This document shows, one piece after another, positions 1-49,846 of a stretch of DNA of 49,846 bases. A program made the translations under genes and the position numbers. The stretch is from a virus (taxonomy: Duplodnaviria; Heunggongvirae; Uroviricota; Caudoviricetes): IMG/VR virus record IMGVR_UViG_2529293147_000015, one strand, 5' to 3'. Numbering within the stretch: position 1 is the first letter of the stretch; each line of letters begins with the position of its first letter. The notes beneath the pieces were generated by a model. It was not told the DNA's origin. It did not search any database and was given only the letters and a program-made list of their open reading frames with translations.

Positions 1-585
1 TTATTCCATAACAGGGGTTGCAGGCCACTCAATATCCGGTGCAGTTGATGTATCAACACGGTTCAGCAACACCCGATACTTTTTCCAGGCTTCCAGCAAT
101 GAGGTTTCTTCCTCCGTTGCGATTTCCAGATCTACAGCATCCTGAAGTGGCGCAATATGCTCACTGGCTACCTGCATCAGGCTGTTTTTTGTTTCTTCCG
201 CCTCTCGGATCCGGAACAGTTTTTCTGCTTCTGCATCTTTCACCCAGGCTGTGCCGTTCCACTTCTGAAACTCCCCTTCCGGCGATAACCAGGTAACATT
301 TTCCGGTAACGGACCGAGTTCAGAAATAAATAACGCGTCCCCTGACGCTACGTCATAAACCGTTTTACCCCGATGGTCTTCAACGAGATGCCACGATGCC
401 TCATCACTGTTGAAAACAGCCACGAAGCCTGCCGGAATATCTGGCGGTGCAATATCGGTACTGTTTGCTGGCAGACCTGTATGAGGCGGAATATATGCAT
501 CACCTTCACCAATAAATTCATTAGTTCCGGCCAGCAGATTATAAATTTTTATGGTCCGTGGTTGTTCACTCATTCTGAATGCCAT
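1..585 (-). CDS. tfa: Tail fibre assembly protein Tfa
   Basis: 194-aa [27 protein letters not shown]... ending ...[11 protein letters not shown], matching lambda Tfa as I remember it; stop codon at window positions 1-3. Confidence 0.85.
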
Positions 586-9154: not shown

Positions 9155-9159
9155 GGGAT

Positions 9160-31746: not shown

Positions 31747-31747
31747 G

Positions 31748-32343: not shown

Positions 32344-33062
32344 AGCCCGCTTCTCCTTGACCTTTCGGTCCGTAAGAGGCTAATCTCTATGTGTCGCATA
32401 GATATGGCCTCAGATTAATGTTAAGCGTCTTGCAGGACGCGTAATGTTAACTGGGGCTTTTCTCTATCTGCCTTTGGTGTTCATGCCTGAGGCAGATAGC
32501 CTCAAGCACCCGCAGCAATTCTACTTAACTCCCGTCACCTCGCCAATATAAAATCAATCAGAAAGGCGATCCATAAGAACAACAGCAAGACAATAAATTG
32601 CCATTACAGCCGCAATAGCTAGCGCACATTTGAGAACCAGCACGACAACCTCCTGTATTGGACGTACACCAGTTCTGATAAATATGAGGCTGTCTCATCA
32701 TTGATTCAATATAACTATTGGGTATAGTTTCTGTGATTTTGTTCTGTAGAAATGGAACACAACAACCAGTCACCACCAGCACTTCTTTAAATACGCCAAG
32801 TCCGACGCAAGCTAACCTTCTAGTCCGCTTTGAGCGAGGAGCGGACCAAACCCGGCCAACTGACTCTTAAAGGGGCCGCAGGAATTTTTCGTCTGAACTT
32901 TCGAAGCTCCTCTCCCTGAAGACAGAAAACTTCTGTGTGCTGTGGGAATATTGAATCTTTGCATTAGATATAAATAATTTTATCCCGCCTGAAGTTTACA
33001 TTATTTTATTTATCTGTTTTTCTAAATCAGACTGCACTCCTTACTTAAATCAGGAGCCAGTC

Positions 33063-34262: not shown

Positions 34263-34273
34263 AGGGAGGTTAT

Positions 34274-34966
34274 ATGCTTACCCGTGAAAATATGCTTAAT
34301 GGCACATTTGTCAGGGTGCATGAAGCGCTGCTCCCGGCGAATATGCTCTGGGACGCTGAAAAAATACGCGCATCAATGAACTCTACTCTGGAGGAGCGCC
34401 CGACGGGTGCTCCTTTCTGGATATTTGCCTACGGGTCATTGATGTGGAATCCCGTGCTGGCAATTGAAGAAATGCAACGGGCCCGTCTGAAAGGATGGCA
34501 GCGCAGTTTCTGCATTCGTTTGATATCCGGACGAGCGACTCCTGATGTCCCCGGCAGGATGTTATCGCTCGACGAAGGTGGAATTACCGAAGGGATTGCG
34601 TTCAGACTGCCGGAATCGACTCTTATTAATGAGCTGGAAATTGTCTGGACGCGCGAGATGATAACCGGTCTTTACCGTCCGGTCTGGGCAGACGTTTCGC
34701 TAGGAAACGGTGAGGAAATTCAGGCGCTGGCTTTCGTATCAGACAGACTGCATCCGCATTATGAACAGGACAATCTTACAGCGACCGTAGCATTGAGCAT
34801 CGCATCTGCCCGTGGAGACATTGGCACGAATGCAGATTATGTATGGAAACTGCAGGCCACTCTGGGTGCGTTGGGAATACGGGATGATTACGTGAGTGAA
34901 CTGGCCCTTGCTCTGCATGAGGCTCCCTGTAACGATAAACTTCATCAGCGAGGCGCTTCACTATGA
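34274..34966 (+). CDS. ChaC-like gamma-glutamylcyclotransferase family protein
   Basis: FWIFAYGSLMWNP motif and ...LWTREMITG... Confidence 0.75.
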   Translation: MLTRENMLNGTFVRVHEALLPANMLWDAEKIRASMNSTLEERPTGAPFWIFAYGSLMWNPVLAIEEMQRARLKGWQRSFCIRLISGRATPDVPGRMLSLDEGGITEGIAFRLPESTLINELEIVWTREMITGLYRPVWADVSLGNGEEIQALAFVSDRLHPHYEQDNLTATVALSIASARGDIGTNADYVWKLQATLGALGIRDDYVSELALALHEAPCNDKLHQRGASL

Positions 34967-35844
34967 GCCATCTGAGCCATCTGCGAACGTTTCTTGAGGC
35001 CTATCGCTCTGGCTCCTTTTCAAAGGCGGCAGAACTACTGGGCATCACTCAGCCCGCGGCGTCACAGCATATCCAGTCTCTTGAGACTCTGGTTGGTAAG
35101 CGTCTGTTTATCAGGCAGGCCAGAGGCGTGACGGCAACCGAAGCTGCGGATGAGCTTGCCCGCTCAGTTTCACCCTTCATTGATGGTCTGGAAGAAAAGC
35201 TGTCCTCTTTCCGGTCAGGCTCTGTACACGGGGGAACAATTAATCTGGCAGGACCGCCAGATTTTATTCATTCCCGGCTTGGGACAGTAATGGCTCCACT
35301 AATGAAGGAGGGGTATCGCTTACGCTTTCATACCGGCAATAAGCAACGTATTTATTCCCTTTTGCATGACGGGAGCGCCGATCTCGCTGTTACCGCATCT
35401 ATGCCTGATGACCGTCTGTACGGCTATGCACATCTACTGACTGAACGCATGCTCCTTGTTCATGCTCCCGCCATGTCAGAGATCATCGGATCAGAACCTG
35501 GTGCTGAAACGCTTGCCTCATTACCGCTGATTGCTTATGACGAAGAGTTGCCACTGATTAGAGCGCTCTGGGCCTCCATGTTTCAGAGAGCCCCTGAGAT
35601 GCAGGCTACATTCACCATTCCGGATTTACGTATTATCCGCGACTTGGTCTGTGACGGCCACGGGTGGACAGTGCTGCCGGATTATCACTGTGACAATGAC
35701 CTGAAAAGTGGTCGCCTGATTTCAGTGACCCCTGCAGACCTCGCTCCGACTAATCATCTTTATCTGGTCTGGAACAAAAGGACGGCTAATAACAGCCGAA
35801 CCGCCTATGTTCGGGATTACATTCTTAAAACGTTTCCGCGTTGA
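34963..35844 (+). CDS. LysR-family transcriptional regulator
   Basis: N-terminal HTH (LRTFLEAYRSGSFSKAAELLGITQPAASQHIQSLE) plus substrate-binding domain; start overlaps the ChaC-like stop. Confidence 0.85.
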   Translation: MSHLSHLRTFLEAYRSGSFSKAAELLGITQPAASQHIQSLETLVGKRLFIRQARGVTATEAADELARSVSPFIDGLEEKLSSFRSGSVHGGTINLAGPPDFIHSRLGTVMAPLMKEGYRLRFHTGNKQRIYSLLHDGSADLAVTASMPDDRLYGYAHLLTERMLLVHAPAMSEIIGSEPGAETLASLPLIAYDEELPLIRALWASMFQRAPEMQATFTIPDLRIIRDLVCDGHGWTVLPDYHCDNDLKSGRLISVTPADLAPTNHLYLVWNKRTANNSRTAYVRDYILKTFPR

Positions 35845-35888
35845 TGTTTGAAACGGATGATTGGCGATGCGTATCATAAGTTACGTAT

Positions 35889-35918
35889 GTCCGCTTCTGG
35901 CACAAAGCAGACGCCCAC
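35889..35918. repeat. Direct repeat copy 1 (GTCCGCTTCTGGCACAAAGCAGACGCCCAC)
   Basis: ~30-bp imperfect direct repeat of 39562..39591; the pair brackets the DUF2254 and BCCT genes. Confidence 0.5.
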
Positions 35919-35974
35919 TCTCACGCGAATGCTTTGCCCTTGACTTGCCAACAACCGTATCGCTTGCTCCGCAA

Positions 35975-37267
35975 CTATGGTTTTTTATTAGAACCTTCGC
36001 CACTAAATAAATTATAATAAATTGATTTTATTAGATATCTGTCAGAATCTATATGGTCAGCACGAGTAGCATGCTCTAATGTTTCAAATGCTAGGGTTTG
36101 TGCGGCTTCAGCAAAAATTCCAGGCCAACCCTTACTCAGCATCGACAGTCCTTTAAGTACCCTTATCTGAATTTCCCTCATACTGGCACCATCGCGCGCA
36201 ACAGGTGAGAAAAAGTCTTCAAGTAGATCGTTATTCTGAAGTGGTGCAACATGTACAGAAGGATATTTCACTTCTATTTCATCAGATTTATTCTGCGCGT
36301 AAGCGGAAAGTATACGTACACCTCTGCCAATGACATCAATGGCGGTTCCAGGATCGTTCACTGCGGGGGAAAGGGCTCGGCAGGCTATTTCGGCCATGAC
36401 GCTAAGACAAAATCGGGGGTCCTGAGCAAATGAACGTACATCCGAGACAATAATCGTCTCAAGTAAATCGGTGCTGATTGATGACTCCTGGCCCTGACTC
36501 AGGTACAAAACTGGCGTGGACGGATGTATGAAACTGCCCGGCTGCGCCACGAGGTATACATGACGGGGATCATTGGTCAGCAGCTTGCTGAGTTTCACCA
36601 TATCAACATATTCAACATAGCCAATCTTTTTCGGATAAACTGCAACCGTTCCTTTCGGCTGTTCATTGTTCTCAAGCCAAGGATATCCGCCGAGACAGGG
36701 ATTTCTTGCTCTCGCAATAAATGTTTCGATGGCCGCCTGTTCTACTTTTGCCGTTGTCTCACCAACCCTCCCCAGAGAGGTCAAATGCTGTATCCAGCGA
36801 AGCAATGTGATGAGGATTAAGGCAATGACAACCAGTGTTACAATGAATAAAATGACTCTCCCCCTTTCTCCATAAGCTCCCATATTGAGGGCAATAATCC
36901 CTACCAGACTGAAGAGAAAAGAACCGATGAAGGTGGCCAGTACATTTTGTGTGGTGACGTCTTCAACAACTAAACGAGTAGCTCTGGGAGTCACATTAGT
37001 AGTGGCTGAACCGTAGGCTGTGACCATGATGCTCAGCGAAAATGTGGTCACTGCCAGCATACTCGATGCCAGTATGTTCAGAATGTTATCGACTGCTTCC
37101 GCACCAACCTTCACGGAAACCGACTCAGGTATCATTGATTTAAAAAGAATTGATAAAAGGGCCGTTATTATTGCGACAATTGCGAATAACGTTGCCCTGA
37201 ACCATAGTTTTTTAAATGTCTGCTTCAGCATCCATTTCCAGCGTGAAATCATTCTGCATTCCCTCAT
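35975..37267 (-). CDS. DUF2254-type integral membrane protein
   Basis: 430-aa ORF with N-terminal TM bundle and soluble C-terminal domain. Confidence 0.6.
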   Translation of the reverse strand: MRECRMISRWKWMLKQTFKKLWFRATLFAIVAIITALLSILFKSMIPESVSVKVGAEAVDNILNILASSMLAVTTFSLSIMVTAYGSATTNVTPRATRLVVEDVTTQNVLATFIGSFLFSLVGIIALNMGAYGERGRVILFIVTLVVIALILITLLRWIQHLTSLGRVGETTAKVEQAAIETFIARARNPCLGGYPWLENNEQPKGTVAVYPKKIGYVEYVDMVKLSKLLTNDPRHVYLVAQPGSFIHPSTPVLYLSQGQESSISTDLLETIIVSDVRSFAQDPRFCLSVMAEIACRALSPAVNDPGTAIDVIGRGVRILSAYAQNKSDEIEVKYPSVHVAPLQNNDLLEDFFSPVARDGASMREIQIRVLKGLSMLSKGWPGIFAEAAQTLAFETLEHATRADHIDSDRYLIKSIYYNLFSGEGSNKKP

Positions 37268-37315
37268 ATTGCAGCCGGGATAAATAAATGCCGCCTCTGT
37301 GGCGGCATGTTGCTG

Positions 37316-39319
37316 TTAACGAACCAGATGCAGGAAGTGCAGGTGTTTTTCGTACTGGTCCAGTATGTCATTAATCAGCTGTTCCTGATTCCAGCCCATT
37401 ACATCATAATTTTGGCCGCCCTCTTTGAGATAGACTTCAGCGCGATAATATCGATGTTGTTCACTCTGCTGCTCATCATTATCCAGCGCAGCGAGCGCGA
37501 AGGTCGGTGAGTTATACCCGCGAAGCCTCACTTCATATATATAATTCAGCTCGTTGCCCAAATCGACTTCAAGGCGAATACGATCCTCGGCGGCGTCACT
37601 GATGTGGCTTATCGTTCCCTGCTTGTTAAGTTCCTCCTGAACCAGCGTCATGGCGGGTTGGATAATGTCGTCCATAAAACGTTTCACAAGAGAGCGCTTC
37701 GGCAAATACGCGATATTGCGTAACCTTCTCTGCCAGGGAATTGGGTTACGTGCAGCCGTAGGAGCAATAGTCGCCATGCTAAGGCTTTCACGCTTGGTCA
37801 AATCCCGACGCAGGGCTTTTAACAGTCCGTATATGGATATTAATAAGATAACTGAGAAGGGCAATGCACTCGCTATCGTTACGGTTTGCAACGCACTCAG
37901 CCCCCCTGCGATCAGCAGGGCAATAGCAACAACGCCCATGAGCGATGCCCAGAAAATTCGCTGCCAGACGGGCGTGTTTGCCACCCCACCTGATGCCAGA
38001 GTATCCACAACCATTGCCCCCGAATCAGCAGACGTTACAAAGAAGACGATGACCATCGCCATTGCAATGAATGACAGCACGGAAGAGAACGGGAAATGCT
38101 CCAGGAAATTAAACAGGGCAAGCGCAACATCCTGCTGAACGGTATTGGCGAGGTCAGTGGCGCCCTGGTTCATGATGAGATAGATGGCGCTGTTTCCAAA
38201 CACCGTCATCCACATGAGCGTAAAGCCGGCGGGAACAAACAACACGCCAGTCACGAACTCACGAATTGTCCTGCCGCGGGAAACGCGTGCAATGAACATA
38301 CCTACAAACGGCGACCATGAAAGCCACCATCCCCAGTATAATAATGTCCAGCCCCCCAGCCAGTTGCTCGACTTGGGTTCATACGCGTAAAGGTTGAACG
38401 TTTTACTCACCAGTTCCGACAGATAACCACCCGTATTTTCCACAAATGACTTCAGCAGAAGCACAGTGGGACCCAGGCACAAGACCAGCGCCAGGAGCAA
38501 CACCGCCAGGCCCAGATTAAGCTCAGACAGGATGCGTATTCCCTTGTCCAGGCCGGACACCACCGAAATCGTCGCTAACCCCGTGATGACCACGATCAAA
38601 ATGACCTGTACCGTTTCATTGATGGGCACGCCGAAAAGATGGTTCAAACCGGCATTCACCTGCAATACACCGTAACCCAGTGATGTTGCAACGCCAAAGA
38701 CAGTGCCTATCACGGCGAAGATATCAACCGCGTGGCCTATAGGCCCGTAAATGCGATCGCCGATAATGGGATAGAGCGCAGAACGCAGCGTTAAAGGCAG
38801 ACCGTGACGGTAACTGAAAAAGGCCAGAATCAGCGCCACGATGGCATAAATTGCCCATGCGTGCAGACCCCAGTGGAAGAACGTCAGGCGCATGGCTTCC
38901 TTCGCTGCCGCAACGGTCTCTGGAGTGCCGACAGGTGGCGAAAGATAATGCATCACAGGTTCGGCAACGCCAAAGAACATCAGGCCGATCCCCATCCCTG
39001 CCGAAAAAAGCATCGCGAACCAGGAGTGGTAGCTGAAATCAGGCTGCGCATGGTCTGGGCCCAGCTTTATATCACCGTAACGTGAGAGTCCAAGGAACGT
39101 GACGCTCAGTAAAATCAGGGCCACAGCAAGTATGTAGAACCAGCTGGCATTCGTGAAGATTTGTTGCTGAAGTAGTTTAAAATTTTTGTCGGCGACATCC
39201 GGGAATACGGCGGCAAAGGCGACAAGAAGGAAAATTAGCAAAGCAGATGTAAAGAATACCGCTTTGTTAATCTGGCTTGTAGACTTCTTTGGGGTTGTAT
39301 CATTTTCACTCATAATCAT
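37316..39319 (-). CDS. BCCT-family (betaine/carnitine/choline) transporter
   Basis: 667 aa; BCCT signature around WTLLYWGWWLSWSPFVGMFIARVSRGRTIREF. Confidence 0.85.
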   Translation of the reverse strand: MIMSENDTTPKKSTSQINKAVFFTSALLIFLLVAFAAVFPDVADKNFKLLQQQIFTNASWFYILAVALILLSVTFLGLSRYGDIKLGPDHAQPDFSYHSWFAMLFSAGMGIGLMFFGVAEPVMHYLSPPVGTPETVAAAKEAMRLTFFHWGLHAWAIYAIVALILAFFSYRHGLPLTLRSALYPIIGDRIYGPIGHAVDIFAVIGTVFGVATSLGYGVLQVNAGLNHLFGVPINETVQVILIVVITGLATISVVSGLDKGIRILSELNLGLAVLLLALVLCLGPTVLLLKSFVENTGGYLSELVSKTFNLYAYEPKSSNWLGGWTLLYWGWWLSWSPFVGMFIARVSRGRTIREFVTGVLFVPAGFTLMWMTVFGNSAIYLIMNQGATDLANTVQQDVALALFNFLEHFPFSSVLSFIAMAMVIVFFVTSADSGAMVVDTLASGGVANTPVWQRIFWASLMGVVAIALLIAGGLSALQTVTIASALPFSVILLISIYGLLKALRRDLTKRESLSMATIAPTAARNPIPWQRRLRNIAYLPKRSLVKRFMDDIIQPAMTLVQEELNKQGTISHISDAAEDRIRLEVDLGNELNYIYEVRLRGYNSPTFALAALDNDEQQSEQHRYYRAEVYLKEGGQNYDVMGWNQEQLINDILDQYEKHLHFLHLVR

Positions 39320-39561
39320 TTATTCCATTAATTAAATCCGCACTGGATAGAAGGTACTACCTCTCACAGAGTAGCAAAGTTCAACTGGCTATGCGGGGTT
39401 AATCGGAATGCATGGTGGAATGAGTGCCGATACAAATCATCCTATATTCTAAGGAGTTTTAAGTTACTCAGCCTGCCAATTACTGGGGCATTTAATTTGT
39501 ATGATCTGTATCAAAGCTGGGATATAAGTTAAGTGAAGTATATTAGGCACGAATTACCAGC

Positions 39562-39591
39562 GTCTGCTCTTGGCACAAAGCGGACAACCAC
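39562..39591. repeat. Direct repeat copy 2 (GTCTGCTCTTGGCACAAAGCGGACAACCAC)
   Basis: Matches 35889..35918 at ~24 of 30 positions. Confidence 0.5.
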
Positions 39592-39653
39592 GCTAGCTCT
39601 ACCCTGTGCCACAAAATGTCAATTTGCATCTGAACTAATGCACTTTAATCTCG

Positions 39654-40076
39654 TCACTTCAATAAATACCGAACATCCCCCTGATAAAACGACAATATGC
39701 GCTGCATAACTTCGCTCTTCCGGCACTCGCGACAGATTATGTTTAGGCGACTGTCGTAGCGACGTATTTCTCCGTCAGGTAATGACCAGATAAGGTCCGG
39801 ATCAACCACAACCGGTTTCTTCAGCTTTGCCCTCGATAATTTTTTGCGGGCATTTTGCCAGTCTTTACGAGCCTGTTCAGACGGGAATAACCCGTAGCCA
39901 GAATTGTATACATCGCCACTGGCAACCAGCTCTCTGGCCAGAACGCTCATCAGATATCTTGTTGCCCCAGTTTTAGCTTCCAGTTGTCGTAACGTCTCGC
40001 GCCCACTCTGGCGTACGAGTTCAAGAACCTGCCCTTTAATTTTTTCCCGCTCTTCTTGTGTAAAAACTTTTGCCAC
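39654..40076 (-). CDS. Hypothetical phage early protein, possibly DNA-binding
   Basis: 140-aa ORF downstream of the replication initiator. Confidence 0.5.
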   Translation of the reverse strand: MAKVFTQEEREKIKGQVLELVRQSGRETLRQLEAKTGATRYLMSVLARELVASGDVYNSGYGLFPSEQARKDWQNARKKLSRAKLKKPVVVDPDLIWSLPDGEIRRYDSRLNIICRECRKSEVMQRILSFYQGDVRYLLK

Positions 40077-40116
40077 AAGCCCTCCTGAAAATTACCTCAT
40101 GACCAGAAATTAACAC

Positions 40117-41193
40117 TTACCCCCTGAAGCCCGGCGGAATTTCGTTATCCGGTTCAGAAATATGATTCACACAACGCTGGTTGTTCGTGCCGCTTACCGG
40201 GAGCAACCAGGGGTTCTCAAAATTCCGGTCCGGTCCAAAAAACGTCGTCGCTCGCTGAACAAATTCCGTTCCCGTTTTCCCGGTAGCCGCCAAGTATCTT
40301 GCGTAACGCCTCACGCCATCCAGCATGGCCTCTGGTGGCACCCCCTCGCGTAATCTGGCCTTCCAGGCACTGAAAGCGGATTTCTTCGGGTTTGCCCCAG
40401 CACGCAACGGGTACTCCCGCCAGACCTGTTCGAACACATCCGGATAATCCACTCGTCCCACAGACTGCCCGGTGTTTTCCGGGACTACCCGATCGGCTTC
40501 CCGCTGAATGGCGGAATCGGCTTCAGGGTGCTGCAGTTGGTGTGATTGCTCCGCCCTTGCGGTCATCACCTGCTGCACAGCGCCCGAATCGGCTTTCAGC
40601 GCATACGCTGAATCGGCTTCCGGTGTCGTGCCTGCTGGCTGACCAAGATTGACGGTCTGAACATCCCCTGCCTGGTTCGTGGCGTTTTTTACGCCATGGA
40701 CCATAGTGTTTTGATCTTCTTGATCTGTATCTTTATCTGTATCTTTATCTGTCGTGACTCGTCGTGACATGTGCGTGACATTTCGTGACGCGCCGTGACA
40801 ATCGCCATTTTGTTCCCGCTTTCTTTCCCTCTCTCGCTGCGCCCTCTTGCGCTCTGCAGGAGATTTTGCGGTTTGCGAAATATTGCCGTTGTCCTCTTTA
40901 AGCACCTGGCGTTTTTCCCATCCAGTGATTAAATCACCATCAAGTACCCGCCCCTGCATCGTCTGCAAAATTGAATCAATTACCTCTTCTGTCACGTCGA
41001 GCGCACTTGCCAAATCTTCTGTCGTGACATCAATGTGACCTCGCGTGACATTTCGTGACGCGCTCACCAGGAGGTGGATATACACTGCCATCACTGTTGC
41101 AATTGGCTGCCCTGACACCCTGGCAATTGTTCGCCACTTAGGGTCATTTGGCATGTCATGCCATAATCTGAGCCAGGCGTTAGCCATACTCAC
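40117..41193 (-). CDS. Replication initiation protein (YdaU/DUF1376-like) with internal iterons
   Basis: 358-aa ORF in the O-gene position after Cro-like and YdaT-like genes; internal CGTGAC iterons. Confidence 0.55.
   Translation of the reverse strand: MSMANAWLRLWHDMPNDPKWRTIARVSGQPIATVMAVYIHLLVSASRNVTRGHIDVTTEDLASALDVTEEVIDSILQTMQGRVLDGDLITGWEKRQVLKEDNGNISQTAKSPAERKRAQRERERKREQNGDCHGASRNVTHMSRRVTTDKDTDKDTDQEDQNTMVHGVKNATNQAGDVQTVNLGQPAGTTPEADSAYALKADSGAVQQVMTARAEQSHQLQHPEADSAIQREADRVVPENTGQSVGRVDYPDVFEQVWREYPLRAGANPKKSAFSAWKARLREGVPPEAMLDGVRRYARYLAATGKTGTEFVQRATTFFGPDRNFENPWLLPVSGTNNQRCVNHISEPDNEIPPGFRG
40721..40806. repeat. Putative replication origin iterons, cluster 1
   Basis: Five CGTGAC copies at ~10-11 bp spacing (40753, 40763, 40774, 40785, 40795) preceded by tandem TATCTTTATCTG. 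Confidence 0.55.
41018..41064. repeat. Putative replication origin iterons, cluster 2
   Basis: CGTGAC repeated at 41023, 41044, 41055; CGTGACATTTCGTGACGCGC shared with cluster 1. Confidence 0.5.
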
Positions 41194-41258
41194 CTCTTTT
41201 GATACCGAATCTTTTTACTCACAAATTGCCGGAAGTGATCCGGTATGAATATTGCGAG

Positions 41259-41684
41259 TCAATGCACAGCCACAATATTTCCTGCAGGGCCACCACGATT
41301 CATCTGGTTGAAACCAGCGATCGCCACTGCGACAAAATCATCAGCGTCTCTCACCAGCCGTTCCCGCGTCTCCACCAGCTCCCGAAACCAGGCTGAACTG
41401 TGGCTGCGCATTCGGGCCACCAGCAGAGGCGGCATTGCTTTTTCGATAGCTGGTAACAACGCCTGAATTTTTTTAACCGCATCAGGGGTGTCTTTCTCCA
41501 CCCAGCGGAAAATTTTCTGAGTATTGCGAGCCAGGGCTTCCGGATGGCTGTCGTTATACAGTTCCGGGAACGTCATTCCCAGCTCGAAATACGCTTTGGT
41601 AATTTTCGCAGCCGGAACTTTTTCACCGTCCGGATGCGCCCAGGCATTCATCGCCATGCGGATGTGTTCATGCTTGATTTTCAT
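41259..41684 (-). CDS. YdaT-like protein (CII-like regulator position)
   Basis: 141-aa ORF MKIKHEHI... immediately downstream of the Cro-like gene. Confidence 0.5.
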   Translation of the reverse strand: MKIKHEHIRMAMNAWAHPDGEKVPAAKITKAYFELGMTFPELYNDSHPEALARNTQKIFRWVEKDTPDAVKKIQALLPAIEKAMPPLLVARMRSHSSAWFRELVETRERLVRDADDFVAVAIAGFNQMNRGGPAGNIVAVH

Positions 41685-41983
41685 GAATCAACTCCATCAG
41701 ATAAGCATGCACTACAATCACCTTCAGCATGAACTACATGTGTTTGCCCCAAACGAATGCCGCTCGCATACTCAGGCCAAATAAGCTCCCAATCATGGGG
41801 TCGTAGCTCCGCCCTACTTACTTGGCCTTCCGTCGCAGATTCGATCATAAGGGCGCGTGTTGGAGATATAGCTGCTCGTCCAGACGCCATTTGCGATAAG
41901 TAAGATGGCGATACACCAAGTCTGGCTGCGAATTTCTTAGCATCACCAACCCTCAATGATTTAATAAACTCTTTTAATGTCAT
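41681..41983 (-). CDS. Cro-like HTH regulator (YdaS-like)
   Basis: HTH segment AKKFAARLGVSPSYLSQMASGR; divergent from the repressor gene. Confidence 0.6.
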   Translation of the reverse strand: MTLKEFIKSLRVGDAKKFAARLGVSPSYLSQMASGRAAISPTRALMIESATEGQVSRAELRPHDWELIWPEYASGIRLGQTHVVHAEGDCSACLSDGVDS

Positions 41984-41991
41984 ACCTTCCT

Positions 41992-42070
41992 CGGTTTAGT
42001 GTTTTTTTTGAGAGTTTAGTGTTTAATAAACCATTAAGTCAAGTATTTGCTTGTTTAGTGATTACTAAAG
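41992..42070. promoter_or_regulatory. OR-like operator and divergent promoter region
   Basis: Three GTTTAGTG copies (41994, 42015, 42053) and palindrome GTTTAATAAAC between the divergent Cro-like and repressor genes. Confidence 0.5.
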
Positions 42071-42081
42071 ATAATTACCAC

Positions 42082-42453
42082 ATGCAAAAAAAAGAAATTC
42101 GCCGTTTACGTCTCAAGGAGTGGTTTAAAGATAAAACTCTGCCACCCAAAGAGAAGAGCTACCTATCTCAACTAATGAGTGGGAGAGCCTCGTTTGGAGA
42201 AAAGGCTGCCAGAAGAATAGAGCAAACATACGGGATGCCGGAAGGGTATCTGGATGCGGAATACGCAGAACAACCGGAGGTTTCTCCACCACATGCAGGG
42301 TTAACGTCTAATCAACTGGAATTATTGCAGATTTTTTCAGCCTTCCCTGAGGATGAGCAACGCCAGATAATCAGCGAGTTAAAGCAGAAAAAAGAATCAA
42401 TGGAAGATCTCATAGCGAGATGGATTGCGGCGCAAAAATGCCGCCGCGCCTGA
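42082..42453 (+). CDS. Prophage repressor / regulator (RacR- or PaaR-like)
   Basis: ORF from MQKKEIRRLRLKEW...; divergent to the Cro-like gene and upstream of the TA pair. Confidence 0.55.
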   Translation: MQKKEIRRLRLKEWFKDKTLPPKEKSYLSQLMSGRASFGEKAARRIEQTYGMPEGYLDAEYAEQPEVSPPHAGLTSNQLELLQIFSAFPEDEQRQIISELKQKKESMEDLIARWIAAQKCRRA

Positions 42454-42473
42454 GTTATAAAACCGGAGGAAAC

Positions 42474-42665
42474 ATGAATAGAGCCCTTTCACCAATGGTT
42501 TCTGAATTTGAAACCATTGAACAAGAAAACAGTTACAACGAATGGCTGCGTGCAAAAGTAGCAACGAGCCTTGCAGATCCACGCCCAGCAATTCCCCATG
42601 ACGAAGTTGAGCGCAGAATGGCAGAACGCTTTGCTAAAATGCGCAAGGAACGGAGCAAGCAGTAA
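42474..42665 (+). CDS. Type II antitoxin (small, PaaA/ParD-like)
   Basis: 63-aa ORF MNRALSPMVSEFETIEQENSYNEWLRAK..., RBS GGAGGA, stop 1 nt before the toxin start. Confidence 0.6.
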   Translation: MNRALSPMVSEFETIEQENSYNEWLRAKVATSLADPRPAIPHDEVERRMAERFAKMRKERSKQ

Positions 42666-42666
42666 A

Positions 42667-42945
42667 ATGTTACCCGTGTTATGGCTTGAAAGCGCAGATA
42701 CCGACCTAGATGATATAACTAGTTATATTGCTCGTTTCGACATAGATGCGGCTGAACGCTTATGGCAGCGATTAAGGGGTTGTGTGCTGCCGTTATCCGA
42801 ACATCCGTATTTATACCCACCAAGCGACAGAGTACCTGGCTTGCGTGAGATTGTAGCCCACCCTAACTATATAATTCTATACCGCGTAACAACATCAAGC
42901 GTTGAAGTAGTAAACGTGATCCACGCAAGACGCCAGTTTCCCTAA
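42667..42945 (+). CDS. ParE/RelE-family toxin
   Basis: 92-aa ORF MLPVLWLESADTDLDDITSYIA... ending ...ILYRVTTSSVEVVNVIHARRQFP. Confidence 0.7.
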   Translation: MLPVLWLESADTDLDDITSYIARFDIDAAERLWQRLRGCVLPLSEHPYLYPPSDRVPGLREIVAHPNYIILYRVTTSSVEVVNVIHARRQFP

Positions 42946-43013
42946 CTTTCACTACCAATAGAAACATAACAACCGCAACGACTTTATCAAAAGCGTTGTG
43001 TTTGTTACGCCCT

Positions 43014-43066
43014 GCGGTTTAGTTTTTACTTGACTTAAGTTTAATGTTTATTAAACTAAAAATATC
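43014..43066. promoter_or_regulatory. OL-like operator region
   Basis: Inverted copy of the OR sequence (TTAATAAAC, TTAAGTCAAG shared) upstream of the plus-strand early-left genes. Confidence 0.45.
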
Positions 43067-43155
43067 AACCCACCCCGCCCCACATAATGCAGGGCAATAC
43101 TTCGAGTTACCAGGCAGTGGTCAGGGGTTAAGTAGCCAGCCCGAGGCGTAAGAAC

Positions 43156-43392
43156 ATGACGGCAGGGTTCAACTTTAATAACTATGCAGCAGGTTTTTGT
43201 TCCGCTACCCCGGCGTTAAGGGGAAATGAGGTCAGCATGGATACTATCGATCTTGGCAACAGCGAATCTCTGGTATGTGGCGTGTTCCCCAACCAGGACG
43301 GTACGTTCACCGCGATGACGTATACCAAAAGCAAAACGTTTAAAACCGAAAATGGTGCCCGTCGCTGGCTGGAAAGAAACTCAGGTGAGTGA
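43156..43392 (+). CDS. Hypothetical early-left protein
   Basis: 78-aa ORF, first gene after OL. Confidence 0.35.
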   Translation: MTAGFNFNNYAAGFCSATPALRGNEVSMDTIDLGNSESLVCGVFPNQDGTFTAMTYTKSKTFKTENGARRWLERNSGE

Positions 43393-43393
43393 T

Positions 43394-43522
43394 ATGGATT
43401 TCGACACAATCATGGAAAAGGCTTACGAAGAATACTTCGAAGGTCTTGCCGAAGGCGAAGAAGCTCTCAGCTTCAACGAATTTAAACAGGCGCTTTCCAG
43501 TTCGGCAAAATCTAACGGCTGA
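43394..43522 (+). CDS. Small acidic protein (42 aa)
   Basis: ATG 2 nt after the upstream stop; MDFDTIMEKAYEEYFEGLAEGEEALSFNEFKQALSSSAKSNG; below ORF-track cutoff. Confidence 0.3.
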   Translation: MDFDTIMEKAYEEYFEGLAEGEEALSFNEFKQALSSSAKSNG

Positions 43523-43551
43523 TAAGCGAAACAGCACCGCGAGGAATCAGT

Positions 43552-43767
43552 ATGCAGAAACGAGAACCCGTCATCATCGCGCCAGACTATACCGATGATG
43601 AACTTTATGAGTGGATGCACCAGAAAATTAATGCAGCGCAGGATCTGAAATGGGCCAATGAAGCTAGGGCTAAGCAGGCTGAAAATCTGTCCGCTCTGGA
43701 GCAGGATATCACCAATCTGGAAAAAGCAGCAGCATTAAGCATTGCCAGAATGATTACAGGTTGGTAA
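43552..43767 (+). CDS. Hypothetical early-left protein
   Basis: 71-aa ORF, coiled-coil-like C-terminus. Confidence 0.4.
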   Translation: MQKREPVIIAPDYTDDELYEWMHQKINAAQDLKWANEARAKQAENLSALEQDITNLEKAAALSIARMITGW

Positions 43768-43777
43768 TAAAGGAGTT

Positions 43778-43829
43778 CTCCACGGGTGAGGTGGAGTGCG
43801 TGTGCCGGACACGGGTGAGCATCCGGCAC
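43778..43829 (+). ncRNA. Tandem stem-loops sharing CACGGGTGAG (candidate structured RNA or protein-binding element)
   Basis: Hairpin 1 CTCCAC-gggtgag-GTGGAG (43778..43796); hairpin 2 GTGCCGGA-cacgggtgagca-TCCGGCAC (43802..43829). Confidence 0.3.
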
Positions 43830-44306
43830 TGACAGTTTACTGAAAGGATATTTCCCTGAAAAGTCAGACCATAACGCGAAAGCGCACGGCGAGGTAGCTG
43901 GTTCATAGATAGCCTGTCGTTAAATTTTCGTCGACCGTGCGCTTCCGGTTGTGGCAATCCGCGAAATGGCGCGGCGGTAAGTATGGCGGGGTTATTCCTT
44001 CCCCCGTTGAGGACACCGGGTTGTCAGGTTGACCATACGCTTAAGTGACAACCCCGCTGCAACGCCCTCTGTTATCAATTTTCTGGTGACGTTTGGCGGT
44101 ATCAGTTTTACTCCGTGACTGCTCTGCCGCCCTTTTTAAAGTGAATTTTGTGATGTGGTGAATGCGGCTGAGCGCACGCGGAACAGTTAAAACCAAAAAC
44201 AGTGTTATGGGTGGATTCTCTGTATCCGGCGTTAATTGTTAACTGGTTAACGTCACCTGGAGGCACCAGGCACCGCATCACAAAATTCATTGTTGAGGAC
44301 GCGATA

Positions 44307-44495
44307 ATGAAAACGTTATTACCAAACGTTAATACGTCTGAAGGTTGTTTTGAAATTGGTGTCACTATCAGTAACCCAGTATTTACTGAAGATGCCATTA
44401 ACAAGAGAAAACAAGAAGGGGAGCTATTAAATAAAATATGCATTGTTTCAATGCTGGCTCGTTTACGTCTGATGCCAAAAGGATGTGCACAATGA
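44307..44495 (+). CDS. Small hypothetical protein
   Basis: 62-aa ORF from MKTLLPNVNTSEG..., RBS GAGGA. Confidence 0.35.
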   Translation: MKTLLPNVNTSEGCFEIGVTISNPVFTEDAINKRKQEGELLNKICIVSMLARLRLMPKGCAQ

Positions 44496-44683
44496 ATTCA
44501 GCATTTGCGCTTGTTCTGACAGTTTATCTTGTTTCCGGAGAGCCAGTTGATATTGCAGTCAGTGTTCACAGGACAATGCAGGAGTGTATGACTGCAGCAA
44601 CCGAACAGAAAATTCCCGGTAACTGTTACCCGGTCGATAAAGTTATTCACCAGGATAATAACGAAATCCCGGCAGGTCTTTAA
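44492..44683 (+). CDS. Small secreted or membrane protein
   Basis: 63-aa ORF MNSAFALVLTVYLVSG... with signal-peptide-like N-terminus; ATGA overlap with the upstream gene. Confidence 0.4.
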   Translation: MNSAFALVLTVYLVSGEPVDIAVSVHRTMQECMTAATEQKIPGNCYPVDKVIHQDNNEIPAGL

Positions 44684-44775
44684 AACAGTTCCGTAATAAA
44701 TATCCGGTTTCATTCTTATATGCCAGCAATGGCAGGGATTTATTCACCCTTAAATCTGTAATGAGGTAAAACAAA

Positions 44776-47247
44776 ATGAGTAAAGTCTTTATTTGCGCCG
44801 CCATTCCGGACGAACAGGCAATAAAGGAAGAAGGTGCAGTCGCTGTAGCCACAGCCATTGAAGCTGGCGACGAACGCCGTGCTCGAGCAAAATTTCACTG
44901 GCAATTCCTGGAGCATTATCCGGCTGCTCAGGACTGCGCTTATAAATTTCTTGTTTGCGAGGATAAACCCGGTATACCCCGCCCTGCCCTCGATTCCTGG
45001 GATGCTGAATATATGCAGGAAAACCGCTGGGATGAGGAGTCTGCTTCCTTTGTCCCGGTTGAGACTGAATCAGATCCGATGAACGTCACTTTTGACAAGC
45101 TGGCCCCTGAAGTACAGAACGCTGTCATGGTTAAGTTCGACACATGTGAAAACATCACCGTTGATATGATTATTAGCGCGCAGGAATTGTTGCAGGAAGA
45201 CATGGCAACATTCGACGGACATATCGTTGAAGCGTTGATGAAAATGCCAGAAGTTAACGCCATGTATCCGGAGCTTAAGTTGCACGCCATTGGGTGGGTT
45301 AAGCATAAATGTATTCCTAGTGCTAAATGGCCCGAAATTCAGGCAGAGATGCGCATCTGGAAAAAACGTCGCGAAGGTGAACGCAAGGAAACCGGAAAAT
45401 ACACGTCTGTTGTTGATCTCGCCCGCGCCAGAACCAATCAACAGTACACTGAAAATTCAACAGGAAAAATCTGCCCGGTCATTGCTGCCATTCATCGCGA
45501 ATACAAGCAGACATGGAAAACACTGGATGACGAACTGGCCTACGCTCTCTGGCCTGGTGATGTGGGTGCCGGAAACATTGACGGCAGCATCCATCGCTGG
45601 GCAAAAAAAGAAGTTATCGACAACGACCGCGAAGACTGGAAGCGTATCTCGGCATCAATGCGCAAACAGCCTGATGCCCTTCGCTACGACCGCCAAACTA
45701 TTTTTGGCCTTGTCCGTGAGCGTCCGATCGACATTCACAAAGATCCCGTAGCACTGAACAAATATATCTGCGAATACCTGACGACAAAGGGCGCGTTTGA
45801 GAATGAAGAAACAGACCTGGGCACTGTTGATGTTCTCCAGTCATCAGAAACACAAACTGATGCAGTGGAAACTGAGGTATCTGATATCCCAAAAAATGAA
45901 ACCGCGCCGGAAGCTGAACCATCTGTAGAGCGTGAGGGGCCGTTCTATTTCCTCTTCGCAGATAAGGACGGAGAAAAATACGGTCGCGCAAACAAACTTT
46001 CTGGTCTGGATAAGGCACTGGCTGCTGGCGCCACTGAAATCACAAAAGAAGAATATTTTGCCCGAAAAAATGGCACATACACGGGCTTACCGCAAAATGT
46101 AGATACCGCTGAAGATTCAGAACAACCAGAGCCGATAAAAGTTACCGCTGACGAAGTAAACAAAATTATGCAGGCAGCCAATATCAGCCAGCCTGACGCC
46201 GATAAGTTGCTTGCTGCATCACGTGGTGAATTTGTTGAAGGGATTAGTGACCCGAATGATCCGAAATGGGTTAAGGGGATCCAGACCCGCGATTCTGTGA
46301 ACCAGAACCAGCATGAATCGGAACGGAACTACCAAAAAGCGGAACAAAACAGTCCAAATGCGTTACAAAACGAGCCAGAAACGAAACAGCCTGAACCAGT
46401 GGCGCAACAGGAAGTGGAAAAAGCCTGCACCGCTTGCGGTCAGACCGGCGGCGGCAACTGCCCTGATTGTGGCGCGGTGATGGGCGACGCAACATACCAA
46501 GAAACATTCGATGAAGAGTATCAGGTTGAAGTTCAGGAAGATGATCCGGAGGAAATGGAAGGCGCTGAACATCCACACAAGGAGAACACTGGCGGCAATC
46601 AGCATCACAATAGCGATAATGAAACTGGCGAGACGGCAGATCACCCAATTAAGGTGAACGGTCATCACGAAATCACATCCACCAGCAGGACGTGTGACCA
46701 TCTAATGATCGACCTTGAAACCATGGGAAAAAATCCTGATGCCCCGATCATCTCAATAGGTGCAATATTTTTCGATCCGCAAACCGGAGATATGGGACCG
46801 GAATTTAGTAAGACTATCGATCTGGAAACTGCTGGCGGAGTCATTGATCGGGACACCATTAAATGGTGGCTTAAGCAATCACGCGAAGCGCAATCTGCCA
46901 TTATGACCGATGAAATCCCGTTAGATGATGCACTGTTACAATTGCGGGAATTTATCGACGAAAACTCCGGTGAATTTTTTGTTCATGTCTGGGGAAATGG
47001 AGCCAACTTCGACAACACGATTTTGCGCCGTTCATACGAACGGCAGGGGATCCCCTGCCCGTGGCGTTACTACAACGATCGCGATGTACGCACAATCGTT
47101 GAGCTGGGGAAAGCCATAGACTTCGATGCCAGAACGGCTATTCCATTCGAAGGTGAGCGCCATAATGCACTTGATGACGCCCGTTACCAGGCAAAATACG
47201 TTTCAGTTATCTGGCAAAAACTGATCCCGAGTCAGGCTGATTCTTAA
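44776..47247 (+). CDS. Prophage exonuclease with C-terminal DnaQ-like (DEDD) 3'-5' exonuclease domain
   Basis: 823 aa; C-terminal motifs DLETMG, HVWGNGANFDNTIL, HNALDDARYQA; sits in the exo/recE position upstream of xis-int. Confidence 0.7.
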   Translation: MSKVFICAAIPDEQAIKEEGAVAVATAIEAGDERRARAKFHWQFLEHYPAAQDCAYKFLVCEDKPGIPRPALDSWDAEYMQENRWDEESASFVPVETESDPMNVTFDKLAPEVQNAVMVKFDTCENITVDMIISAQELLQEDMATFDGHIVEALMKMPEVNAMYPELKLHAIGWVKHKCIPSAKWPEIQAEMRIWKKRREGERKETGKYTSVVDLARARTNQQYTENSTGKICPVIAAIHREYKQTWKTLDDELAYALWPGDVGAGNIDGSIHRWAKKEVIDNDREDWKRISASMRKQPDALRYDRQTIFGLVRERPIDIHKDPVALNKYICEYLTTKGAFENEETDLGTVDVLQSSETQTDAVETEVSDIPKNETAPEAEPSVEREGPFYFLFADKDGEKYGRANKLSGLDKALAAGATEITKEEYFARKNGTYTGLPQNVDTAEDSEQPEPIKVTADEVNKIMQAANISQPDADKLLAASRGEFVEGISDPNDPKWVKGIQTRDSVNQNQHESERNYQKAEQNSPNALQNEPETKQPEPVAQQEVEKACTACGQTGGGNCPDCGAVMGDATYQETFDEEYQVEVQEDDPEEMEGAEHPHKENTGGNQHHNSDNETGETADHPIKVNGHHEITSTSRTCDHLMIDLETMGKNPDAPIISIGAIFFDPQTGDMGPEFSKTIDLETAGGVIDRDTIKWWLKQSREAQSAIMTDEIPLDDALLQLREFIDENSGEFFVHVWGNGANFDNTILRRSYERQGIPCPWRYYNDRDVRTIVELGKAIDFDARTAIPFEGERHNALDDARYQAKYVSVIWQKLIPSQADS

Positions 47248-47319
47248 TGTTCAACTGTCGCCGGTTGTGACTGGTATTCTGCAACCGGCGCTCGTCTAAT
47301 GTAAGAGATAAAGAAATCG

Positions 47320-47571
47320 ATGAGCGAAGTAATCATGATTGTCTCTCCCGGCAAATGGGTATCCGAAGAGCAGTTAATTGCGCTGAAAGGAATAAAAAAA
47401 GGTACGTTAAAAAAGGCCCGGGAAAAATCGTTTATGGAAGGAAGGGAATATAAGCATGTCGCTCATGACGGTATGCCATGGGATAACAGCCCATGCTTTT
47501 ACAACCTGGAAGAAATTGATCGCTGGATTGAGCGCCAGGCATCAGCAAGACCAAGACGTCATCTTACTTGA
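47320..47571 (+). CDS. xis: Excisionase (Xis)
   Basis: Small basic ORF immediately upstream of int. Confidence 0.65.
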   Translation: MSEVIMIVSPGKWVSEEQLIALKGIKKGTLKKAREKSFMEGREYKHVAHDGMPWDNSPCFYNLEEIDRWIERQASARPRRHLT

Positions 47572-47590
47572 CTAAAAGCCACACTAACTA

Positions 47591-48886
47591 ATGAGAGAAG
47601 TTGAAATGAAATATCCGACAGGCGTGGAAAACCATGGAGGGAAATTACGTATCTGGTTTGTTTATAAAGGCGTAAGAGTCAGGGAAAACCTGGGGGTTCC
47701 TGACACAGCAAAAAACAGGCGCGTTGCAGGCGAGCTACGCGCCTCTGTTTGTTACGCAATAAAAACTGGTGTTTTCGACTATGCAAAACAGTTTCCCTCC
47801 TCACGCAATCTGGAAAAATTTGGTGAGACCCGACAAGATTTAACCATAAAAGAACTGGCTGAAAAATTTCTGGCACTGAAAGAAACTGAAGTCGCAAAAA
47901 CATCACTCAACACATACCGTGCCGTCATCAAAAATATCCTGAGCATAATCGGTGAAAAAAATCTTGCCTCATCGATTAATAAAGAAAAATTACTGGAGGT
48001 TCGTAAAGAGCTACTGACTGGATACCAGATCCCCAAAAGTAACTATATTGTTACACAACCAGGAAGATCGGCTGTAACTGTAAATAATTACATGACAAAT
48101 CTTAACGCCGTGTTCCAGTTTGGTGTTGATAACGGTTACCTGGCAGATAACCCGTTTAAGGGGATCTCGCCATTAAAGGAATCAAGAACCATTCCGGATC
48201 CTCTTTCGCGGGAGGAATTCATCCGTCTTATCGATGCGTGCAGAAATCAGCAAGCCAAAAATTTATGGTGTGTTTCTGTTTATACTGGCGTTCGCCCTGG
48301 TGAGCTGTGTGCACTTGGATGGGAGGACATAGATCTGAAAAATGGAACAATGATGATCAGGAGAAATTTAGCAAAAGACCGTTTCACGGTACCAAAAACA
48401 CAGGCGGGAACCAATCGGGTCATTCATCTTATTAAGCCAGCAATCGACGCTCTCCGGAGTCAGATGACATTAACGAGACTGAGCAAAGAGCATATCATTG
48501 ATGTTCACCTCAGAGAGTATGGCAGAACAGAAAAACATAAATGCACCTTTGTTTTTCAACCTGAAGTGTCAGCGAGAGTAAAAAATTATGGTGACCATTT
48601 TACCGTTGACTCAATAAGGCAGATGTGGGACGCAGCGATAAAACGTGCCGGACTCCGCCATCGAAAATCATATCAGTCGAGACATACTTATGCCTGCTGG
48701 TCGCTGACAGCTGGTGCTAACCCGGCATTTATAGCAAACCAGATGGGCCATGCAGATGCGCAAATGGTATTTCAGGTATACGGAAAATGGATGTCTGAAA
48801 ACAATAATGCACAGGTAGCTTTGTTAAATACACAGTTAAGCGAGTTTGCCCCAACCATGCCCCATAACGAAGCAATGAAAAATTAA
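47591..48886 (+). CDS. int: Tyrosine integrase (alternative start at 47606, MKYPTG)
   Basis: N-terminal arm-binding-like region GGKLRIWFVYKG; C-terminal catalytic region with HTYACW...GHADAQMVFQVYGKWM. Confidence 0.9.
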   Translation: MREVEMKYPTGVENHGGKLRIWFVYKGVRVRENLGVPDTAKNRRVAGELRASVCYAIKTGVFDYAKQFPSSRNLEKFGETRQDLTIKELAEKFLALKETEVAKTSLNTYRAVIKNILSIIGEKNLASSINKEKLLEVRKELLTGYQIPKSNYIVTQPGRSAVTVNNYMTNLNAVFQFGVDNGYLADNPFKGISPLKESRTIPDPLSREEFIRLIDACRNQQAKNLWCVSVYTGVRPGELCALGWEDIDLKNGTMMIRRNLAKDRFTVPKTQAGTNRVIHLIKPAIDALRSQMTLTRLSKEHIIDVHLREYGRTEKHKCTFVFQPEVSARVKNYGDHFTVDSIRQMWDAAIKRAGLRHRKSYQSRHTYACWSLTAGANPAFIANQMGHADAQMVFQVYGKWMSENNNAQVALLNTQLSEFAPTMPHNEAMKN

Positions 48887-49139
48887 TTTAATATTTATCA
48901 AATAGTTGACACGTATGACTCTTGAAATCCATAATTCACAGATGTTTTTTCTCATTCTGTGGTTTCCTTGGCGCTTTCTAGGTTTTTTCAGATAGTTACA
49001 TTTTTTCAAAAGCATCCTGAGTTCGATCTTACTATCTATCTGTGGCCTATTTCTGTCCCATATATGCCCCAAAAAACACCCCAACAGATAAGCAATCTTT
49101 TCATGGTGTTACGCGTAAAAACAATAACGGCTTGAAATT

Positions 49140-49300
49140 ATTCAATACACTCTCGAAAGTGCATCAGCCAACCGCAGAACGTTATTGCATACAACGTTTC
49201 TGCGGCATATCACGAAACGATTACTTAATGACTGGGACTTCAGACCACTCAATATCCGGTACAATTATGTATCAACGCAGTTTAACAACACCCTATATTT
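49140..49300 (-). pseudogene. Degenerate 3' remnant of a second tfa gene beyond the int-proximal prophage end
   Basis: 49221..49300 is ~75% identical to window 1..85; minus-strand translation KYRVLLNCVDT* hits a premature stop. Confidence 0.5.
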
Positions 49301-49648
49301 AATCCAGAGTGCGAGCAACGTTGTCCCTTTCTCTTTTGCACTCTTAAAATATACGATTACTTAAGTGAAGATGCTTGACGAATCGCCAAATAAAACATCT
49401 TCATCAGCATAAAAATCCATATATGATTGAAAATTTAGTCATTAATACCATTCATATCTGAATACTAACCTAATACGCTTACTAACCGTGAGAAATCTTT
49501 TTTTTCGACTTAATCACTCGAAATAAACTTTCACTCAATTGAAAACAATTAGCTACAATTATCATTGCAATATCAAATCAAACATAACAACTTGCATAAA
49601 TTCTCATGGGATACAGCATCAGTTGTGCCAAACACATAAGGAATTGAA

Positions 49649-49846
49649 ATGGACGGAGAAAGCTTTAACTTTGATGACAATGATATTGAATTTATTGCTT
49701 CAATGTATGCATCATGTAAATTATCAGGAAGTATCGCCCCCATAATGCATATAATGGTTAGCATTCCAAAAAATAAGAAAAAACAATTCTACGAACGAGT
49801 TGAGCATTATTGTAGTTTATATTCCAATAAAAACCCACCTTCTTAA
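49649..49846 (+). CDS. Hypothetical protein in AT-rich flanking DNA
   Basis: 65-aa ORF in a ~30% GC region; no recognisable family. Confidence 0.25.
   Translation: MDGESFNFDDNDIEFIASMYASCKLSGSIAPIMHIMVSIPKNKKKQFYERVEHYCSLYSNKNPPS

Follow-up and report, generated by a model that had tools for sequence, protein, structure and literature searches.

The closest described counterparts of the locus analysed here are found in phage lambda, in the DLP12 and Qin prophages of E. coli K-12 and in the phages related to mEp460. In lambda the tail-fibre-assembly gene tfa (orf-194) is intact and is directly followed on its 3' side by a spacer of 15 bases and a hairpin at 22573-22606, in the order TAA TCGTTTTGTGATATG CCGCAGAAACGTT GTATGAAAT AACGTTCTGCGG, which places the hairpin between tfa and ea47. 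No feature is annotated at the hairpin in the lambda record. DLP12 carries an intact tfaD, ybcY on the opposite strand and a truncated tfaX oriented like tfaD, with a variant of the lambda hairpin located 3' of its tfaD gene; the hairpin also lies 3' of the intact tfa of Salmonella phage SPF_0923. Qin and the phages mEp460_ev081, Tritos, HannyBb and PhiR42_1 have in common with the locus described below an integrase (~97% identical DNA in the phages), an 11-base att core and the target gene ydfJ, and integration of Qin at the 5' end of ydfJ has been described (PMC6379469). A further point of comparison is the lambda sib/tI element, a hairpin that is located a few hundred bases downstream of int, past attP, and that is unlinked from int by integration.

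The window, by which is meant the whole stretch of 49,846 nucleotides of the IMG/VR virus record IMGVR_UViG_2529293147_000015, reads from an integrase gene across an att site into tail-fibre-related DNA. It very probably contains the attP of a ydfJ-targeting phage of the Qin/mEp460 type, followed by an arm in which a lambda-type tfa end, its spacer and its hairpin persist as a scar. The features of the window referred to in the text are as follows.

1..582, minus strand: intact tail-fibre-assembly gene tfa (Pfam Caudo_TAP, E=5.1e-45), the reference copy for the stub
27456-27532, minus strand: tRNA Arg (tct), called by ARAGORN
27630-27705, minus strand: tRNA with a CAT anticodon, called Met by ARAGORN, its counterpart in strain 3R being called Ile by RefSeq
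47606..48886, plus strand: tyrosine integrase gene int of the Qin/mEp460 type (Pfam Arm-DNA-bind_2, E=5.5e-24; Phage_integrase, E=3.8e-18)
48847..48864, plus strand: candidate arm-type Int repeats of the P' (int-side) arm, inside the 3' end of int, TGCCCCA-N4-TGCCCCA
48925..48935, no strand: att core GAAATCCATAA in attP configuration, from junction comparison
48936..49075, no strand: far (P) arm of attP, part of a stretch with 85% identity to ~290 bases of K-12 Qin that begin at ydfJ'
49054-49071: second repeat, TGTCCCA-N4-TGCCCCA, at the end of the P arm, from a motif scan
49076..49171, no strand: linker from attP to the hairpin, common to Qin and mEp460 and, from 49114, also to SPF_0923
49172..49205, no strand: hairpin of 12 pairs with a bulged T, the same element as 3' of tfa in phage lambda
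49206..49220, minus strand: 15-base spacer from the old tfa stop codon to the hairpin, matching the lambda spacer at 14/15 bases
49221..49339, minus strand: dead stub of a lambda-type tfa, its last ~39 codons, from alignment, blastn and Caudo_TAP
49340..49846, plus strand: AT-rich accessory DNA (~28-33% G+C, from composition) between the stub and the functional tfa
49649-49846, plus strand: orphan ORF of 65 codons within the AT-rich DNA (RefSeq hypothetical protein WP_000348576.1)

The original prediction held that just beyond the integrase lies what is left of another tfa gene, oriented like the intact copy and marked by indels and a premature stop, and formal alignment bears this out. Aligned directly with window 1-140, window 49200-49340 shows 77% column identity with one 1-base gap, both stretches being in the same orientation, and a blastn search of 49150-49450 against the remaining window returns a single significant match, 49228-49339 to 8-120, at 74% identity (E=1.3e-14), all remaining matches within the window having E values of about 6. 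On the minus strand the stub translates as AKEKGTTLLALWIKYRVLLNCVDT up to a stop and then, in another frame, as VPDIEWSEVPVIK up to a second stop. It is a 1-base deletion that brings in the premature stop at 49265-49267, the original stop codon being located at 49221-49223. Once the frame is repaired, the resulting 39-residue peptide matches positions 96-130/131 of Caudo_TAP with E=2.3e-10 and 41 bits, where the cut-off of the profile is 22.1 bits. The stub retains ~39 of the ~193 codons of tfa and the 5' part of the gene is absent. The stretch 49221-49339 matches the family profile but does not hold a complete uninterrupted tfa frame, and it is a dead fragment of a pseudogene and not a gene, one that does nothing. 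Within the phage collection, lambda and its close relatives have the nearest intact genes, their tfa being 77-79% identical to the stub.

Among 5426 complete E. coli genomes the stub together with its frameshift is identical across hundreds, and since the frameshift is common to so many assemblies a sequencing error is unlikely and the frameshift is taken to be an inherited feature of the arm. By megablast the arm that carries the stub is present at an identity of at least 99% in about 560 of the 5426 genomes; it is therefore routine in this phage family, and the stub is not evidence of any particular neighbouring relic.

Two other readings of the stub have been weighed. The similarity between 49221-49300 and 1-85 might merely reflect an att core or a terminal repeat, a reservation that the original prediction had itself expressed, and the proximity of the two similar stretches to the two ends of the window is the one observation in its favour. 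The probability of this reading is practically nil, as the core at 48925-48935 is a separate element of 11 bases at a distance of ~290 bases, and as the stub translates to the C-terminus of Caudo_TAP and matches the tfa genes of lambda and of many other phages. Somewhat less remote, and still very improbable, is the proposal that a small RNA belonging to Rfam family IS009 (RF02111) is produced from the stub region. A cmscan match at 49263-49454 on the minus strand extends over the whole length of the model with E=4e-8, but its score of 40.8 bits falls short of the gathering score of 117, true matches of the family fall within tfaD and tfaQ coding sequence in K-12, and the well-aligned part of the model corresponds to tfa coding sequence. 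The IS009 match in the window is read as tfa homology. An Rfam scan of 48700-49846 gave as its sole matches this sub-threshold one and mir-263 at E=0.18, the latter due to chance.

Although listed as an RNA gene, IS009 maps wholly within the tfa coding sequence in K-12 (tfaD, L011 5857-6055; tfaQ, L003 5345-5543), so that it flags any tfa-like DNA, pseudogene stubs included. An origin of the stub in an invertible tail-fibre segment of the Pin/Gin type was considered and rejected, as stub and functional tfa point the same way and the arm is without a recombinase; Qin and mEp460 have pin at the place where the arm of the window has none.

The int gene of the window is 97% identical at the DNA level to that of phage mEp460_ev081 and is of the Qin/mEp460 type, which integrates into ydfJ. 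The exact Int protein proved to be widespread when looked up, with only ordinary single lysogens returned, and rspB, a gene located beyond ydfJ, normally comes next (8/8 places read). The att core GAAATCCATAA is found in the window and also at the ydfJ'/arm and int/'ydfJ junctions of both strain 3R and K-12 Qin. In strain 3R the ydfJ' side reads ...AACTG GAAATCCATAA TTCACAGATG... and the int side reads ...ACTCTT GAAATCCATAA ATTCAAGCGC..., while the window reads ...ACTCTT GAAATCCATAA TTCACAGATG..., that is, with the int-side flank to the left of the core and the arm flank to its right. In this comparison, which took in the window, strain 3R, K-12 and KSC9, the combination of int-side flank, core and arm flank makes the window junction a complete attP and not a host junction, the core being present in all of the junctions and having phage flanks on both sides.

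A search for att core repeats and a comparison with strains lacking the prophage had been suggested as checks in the original prediction. The first yields the 11-base core at 48925-48935, common to all junctions. As to the second, the predicted attB, obtained by joining the host flanks in silico, is intact inside ydfJ at 100% identity in 2012 of the 5426 genomes, in agreement with the published integration of Qin at the 5' end of this gene (PMC6379469). K-12 Qin itself matches window 48921-49205 at 85% at its ydfJ' end and window 48888-48938 at its intQ end. When 48888-49846 was compared by megablast with the 5426 E. coli genomes, 48921-49846 was found to adjoin a 5'-truncated ydfJ directly in about 560 of them, and only 2 also have the 33 bases that link the arm to int.

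The window contains the pattern TGYCCCANNNNTGCCCCA (TGYCCCA-N4-TGCCCCA) two times only, once at 48847-48864 and once at 49054-49071, where 0.05 occurrences would be expected. The two repeats lie one on either side of the core and both are invariant in diverged attP regions; in the most diverged lineage, represented by the loci L109, L131, L133 and L134, homology is kept up to the second repeat and is lost right after ~49075. The repeats are candidate arm-type sites for the integrase, whose binding there is suggested by their placement and invariance, and the functional attP would then extend over 48847-49075, with the hairpin about 100 bases outside it.

A sigma-70-like promoter is present on the plus strand at 48906-48935 (TTGACA, a spacer of 18 bases and CATAAT; 11/12 consensus). 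It spans the int-side arm and the core and points outward over att, which in a single lysogen would direct it toward the 5' fragment of ydfJ. The region contains 5 sigma-70-like sites where 6.5 are expected, and this one may be due to chance.

The arrangement of int, attP and arm in the window is also that of free phages, as in mEp460_ev081, Tritos, HannyBb and PhiR42_1 the three are contiguous up to 49205 at 96.5-97.3% identity. Strain 3R contains a full 49-kb prophage of the Qin type in ydfJ, in which the arm is situated at the opposite end from the int of the same prophage. The window is colinear with this 49-kb prophage apart from a circular permutation at att: its stretches 23-9884 and 30343-48938 run in the order of the 3R prophage, and 48921-49846 corresponds to its first 926 bases beside ydfJ'. 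Both cos and att are in the joined state in the window, which requires that prophages stand in tandem or that the phage genome is circular or concatemeric. Judged by its junctions, the window reads through a boundary between phage and phage and not through one between prophage and host; it spans the stretch from the tfa stop codon to 49846, and any second prophage body or outer host junctions would lie outside its ends. The int of one prophage joined through an attP to the tail-end arm of the next is what defines a tandem array, and the window junction has this form, but a circular or concatemeric phage genome fits the window equally well.

Junctions of the attP type are rare, having been found in 2 complete E. 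coli genomes, FXCREC035 and ET791, and in 4 IMG/VR contigs, with 0 matches to the junction pattern among GTDB species representatives. None of the complete E. coli genomes contains the window in full; its left half is covered at best to 90%, with 92.7% identity, and its right half to 73%, with 98.1% identity. In both FXCREC035 and ET791 a further copy or relic of a prophage follows in tandem beyond the junction. The two ends of the window can be joined in the manner shown by one of these four contigs, L028, in which the orphan ORF is linked to tfa and stf via 837 bases; in strains 3R and KSC9, as in L028, ~820-840 bases follow the orphan ORF before tfaQ is reached.

These junctions bear on the view taken in the original prediction, in which the stub belongs to a separate, older relic and an intact phage has integrated beside it, giving a tandem lysogen at the ydfJ att site. 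This view is credited with slightly less than an even chance. In both complete genomes with the junction, the DNA to the right of int includes a prophage copy or relic, and in the ~560 genomes the arm ends a Qin-type prophage that is often itself a relic, as in KSC9. Moreover, the arm of L028 is 99.6% identical to that of the window and its int only 83% identical at the protein level, as expected for two phages in tandem. On the other hand, the full-length single prophage of 3R has arm and int in one phage, int and arm are contiguous in free phages, and the window alone is compatible with tandem and circular forms alike. A tandem event would not produce the stub, and on the identity of the stub the two views are not true rivals. 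What endures of the original view is that phage DNA continues beyond the int-side att; its attribution to a particular neighbouring or recombined relic gives way to the reading of the arm as the phage's own.

FXCREC035 (L005/L006, NZ_CM135826.1, ~3.23-3.27 Mb) contains a Qin-type relic at ydfJ in two head-to-tail copies with the same IS1 insertions, and the arrangement in ET791 resembles it. The doubled relic of FXCREC035 is either a true tandem duplication, by att or homologous recombination, or an assembly artefact.

The palindrome that the original prediction had placed at 49172..49205 is found at exactly these coordinates, where its stem consists of 12 pairs and a bulged T instead of the 13 bp proposed. 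The hairpin is formed by CCGCAGAACGTT (49172-49183), a loop of 9 bases, ATTGCATAC, and AACGTTTCTGCGG (49193-49205). Its 12 pairs, 6 of them G-C, give folding energies of -14.4 kcal/mol on the plus strand and -17.7 on the minus strand, with z-scores of -1.33 and -2.25, respectively. About 1% of the 38-base windows in this sequence fold as strongly, so that the energy alone is unremarkable, and it is conservation, not energy, that sets the hairpin apart. It is identical to lambda 22573-22606 at 33/34 bases and its spacer at 14/15, the order in the window being TAA TCGTTTCGTGATATG CCGCAGAAACGTT GTATGCAAT AACGTTCTGCGG. The 97% identity of the hairpin to lambda compares with 77-79% for the adjoining stub. 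This high identity could reflect recent exchange instead of selection.

The conservation extends well beyond lambda. SPF_0923, whose tfa is intact, matches window 49114-49307 at 82%, and at least 120 contigs with the hairpin were recovered in a pattern scan of IMG/VR. Among the matches listed, 64 hairpins are followed by CATA..., and in 63/64 a tfa end is found within 650 bases; 57 of the 64 abut the tfa end within 25 bases, and 6 more have it further off, mostly in the form of the stub type of the window. Another 54 of the matches listed have no tfa nearby and a T-rich tail in the int sense; in 42 of these, or 42/120 of the matches listed, the tail has at least 5 T in 8 bases, 11 more having shorter T-rich tails. 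The 23 distinct hairpin variants among the matches listed have 96.4% of cells paired, against 27-49% when the partners are slid. Covariation amounts to one compensatory pair, C-G to A-U, with U-G also seen, and its support for pairing is modest because the search pattern fixed part of the 5' arm. Wobble pairs among the variants favour either strand, and neither is singled out by them.

The hairpin also marks the limits of homology. Beyond it lambda has no homology with the window, so that the common block ends at the hairpin, while Qin and mEp460 match the window as far as the hairpin and show no relation to it past that point. The lambda match ending at one edge and the Qin/mEp460 match at the other, the hairpin is a shared joint at mosaic boundaries. 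In a different prophage, that of E. coli AR436 (L136, ~2940-3000), a tfa gene that matches window 1-582 at 99.9% identity precedes a decayed hairpin, CCAGCAAGTTCTTGTATATGACGTGACTGTGG, past which lies unrelated DNA with a DEAD/DEAH helicase gene. The presence of the same tfa allele in the AR436 prophage indicates that the tfa cassette moves between prophages.

As to function, the stem of the hairpin would suit an intrinsic terminator, being a G+C-rich stem-loop, but the T/U-run expected directly after it is missing: the tails are CATATCAC on the plus strand and TTGGCTGA on the minus strand, neither with a T-run. A terminator scan did not call the window hairpin. The missing T-run and the missing call make classical intrinsic termination doubtful for the window copy. 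The library searched yielded nothing usable about sib, about a terminator that might follow lambda tfa or about what the lambda hairpin does. Most likely the hairpin would work in RNA at the end of the late (tail-fibre) operon, where this meets int-sense transcription, as a terminator or as a stabiliser of the 3' end.

A rather unlikely alternative is that the hairpin serves int in the manner of lambda sib/tI, its link to int existing solely in free phage and tandem arrays and being broken by integration. Were this so, and the chance is put at about one in five, the termination or stability of int mRNA would differ before and after integration. In its location the hairpin does resemble sib/tI. 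It starts 286 bases past the stop codon of int and at a distance of ~240 bases from the core, downstream of int and beyond attP in a position that integration separates from int, and no other strong hairpin lies between int and the accessory genes; the geometry is similar in lambda, where the tI hairpin at ~27536-27585 lies ~230-275 bases after int and 150-195 beyond the core. A T-run in the int sense also follows the hairpin in Qin, mEp460 and many of the variants. Yet the int-sense tail of the window copy, CATATCAC, is without one, a stem of 12 pairs is short for a substrate of RNase III, and there is no sequence similarity to lambda tI. Furthermore, lambda, DLP12 and SPF_0923 have the hairpin 3' of tfa and well away from any attP, which points to tfa as its primary association. 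A combination of roles is rated as still less likely, namely that the hairpin is a dual-purpose element maintained by selection in many lambdoid phages, which forms an RNA 3' end between convergent late and int-sense transcription, exerts a sib-like control of int, dependent on the state of integration, where it is near attP and in addition serves as a short-homology linker for module swaps that leave stacked tfa stubs behind.

The preferred reading, in which the hairpin belongs with the end of a tfa operon, may be set in a history of the arm, the order of events in which is inferred from the observed homologies, att assignments and frameshift and from the observed conservation and pairing of the hairpin. 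The window runs from int through attP into the non-essential arm of the phage itself, a counterpart of the lambda b region, which a single lysogen has at the other end of the prophage, beside the tail-fibre genes. The ancestral order was probably stf, tfa, spacer, hairpin and att arm, and the arm would still start with a lambda-type ancestral unit made up of the 3' end of tfa, the 15-base spacer and the hairpin. AT-rich accessory DNA and a new stf-tfa cassette would then have arrived, by which the old tfa was presumably cut to its last ~39 codons, and the stub may later have gained its frameshift. The hairpin would have remained nearly unchanged, acting in RNA between the convergent late (tfa-sense) and early-left (int-sense) transcription, while its 34 conserved bases might double as a common joint for the exchange of modules. 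The orphan ORF at 49649-49846 has no Pfam or PHROGs family match and is probably an accessory gene that was picked up with the arm.

Strain 3R has a second, shorter stub of a tfa 3' end (L007, ~1830-1930), ending in ...EWPAVPVG and a stop and lying in the same orientation. It is positioned ~130-230 bases past what corresponds to the right end of the window, between the orphan ORF and the functional tfaQ, and the DNA between the two 3R stubs is AT-rich. The second stub implies that accretion occurred more than once, leaving stacked tfa remnants in the arm. The succession tfaD, ybcY and tfaX of K-12 DLP12 presents a comparable architecture.

Elsewhere in the window, 33063-39319 in the early region contains five large ORFs and is the counterpart of a cargo block in the strain 3R prophage that encodes an MFS transporter, a gamma-glutamylcyclotransferase, a LysR regulator, a DUF2254 protein and a BCCT transporter. 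A cargo of metabolic and transport genes such as that of 33063-39319 is unusual for a lambdoid phage. The two tRNA genes at 27456-27532 and 27630-27705 are located upstream of the antiterminator and lysis region.

For the annotation of prophages, a tail-fibre stub beside an integrase signals the crossing of an attP and not a host junction, which shifts calls of prophage boundaries, and it flags either a tandem lysogen or an episomal phage genome. An att core, likely arm sites and the limits of attP are now available for the very common family of E. coli prophages that target ydfJ, as is a small conserved hairpin at the end of the tail-fibre operon that carries no annotation in the lambda record examined. 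All of the parts are of known kinds and constitute ordinary scars of lambdoid module swapping, and they leave current understanding unchallenged.

Overall, the locus combines elements that the described systems hold separately. It has the tfa end, 15-base spacer and hairpin of lambda, but in lambda tfa is intact and ~5 kb of the b region lies between the hairpin and attP, compared with ~240 bases from hairpin to core in the window. DLP12 likewise has a truncated tfa next to an intact one, but its tfaX has an open frame of 61 codons and is without the C-terminal end, whereas the stub of the window is a frameshifted C-terminal end, and the accessory genes and the integration site of DLP12 are different. 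With Qin and the mEp460 group the likeness extends along the arm through the hairpin, at 85-90% identity. Their variant of the hairpin shows C-G at the pair that is A-T in the window and is followed by TTTTTC, and past it they carry ynfT/ydfK and a Pin-type serine recombinase in place of the tfa stub and the orphan ORF. Finally, the lambda sib/tI element is matched in position, whereas the window copy differs from it in sequence, in its shorter stem and in having no T-run, and a role for RNase III at the window hairpin could be proposed only by analogy.
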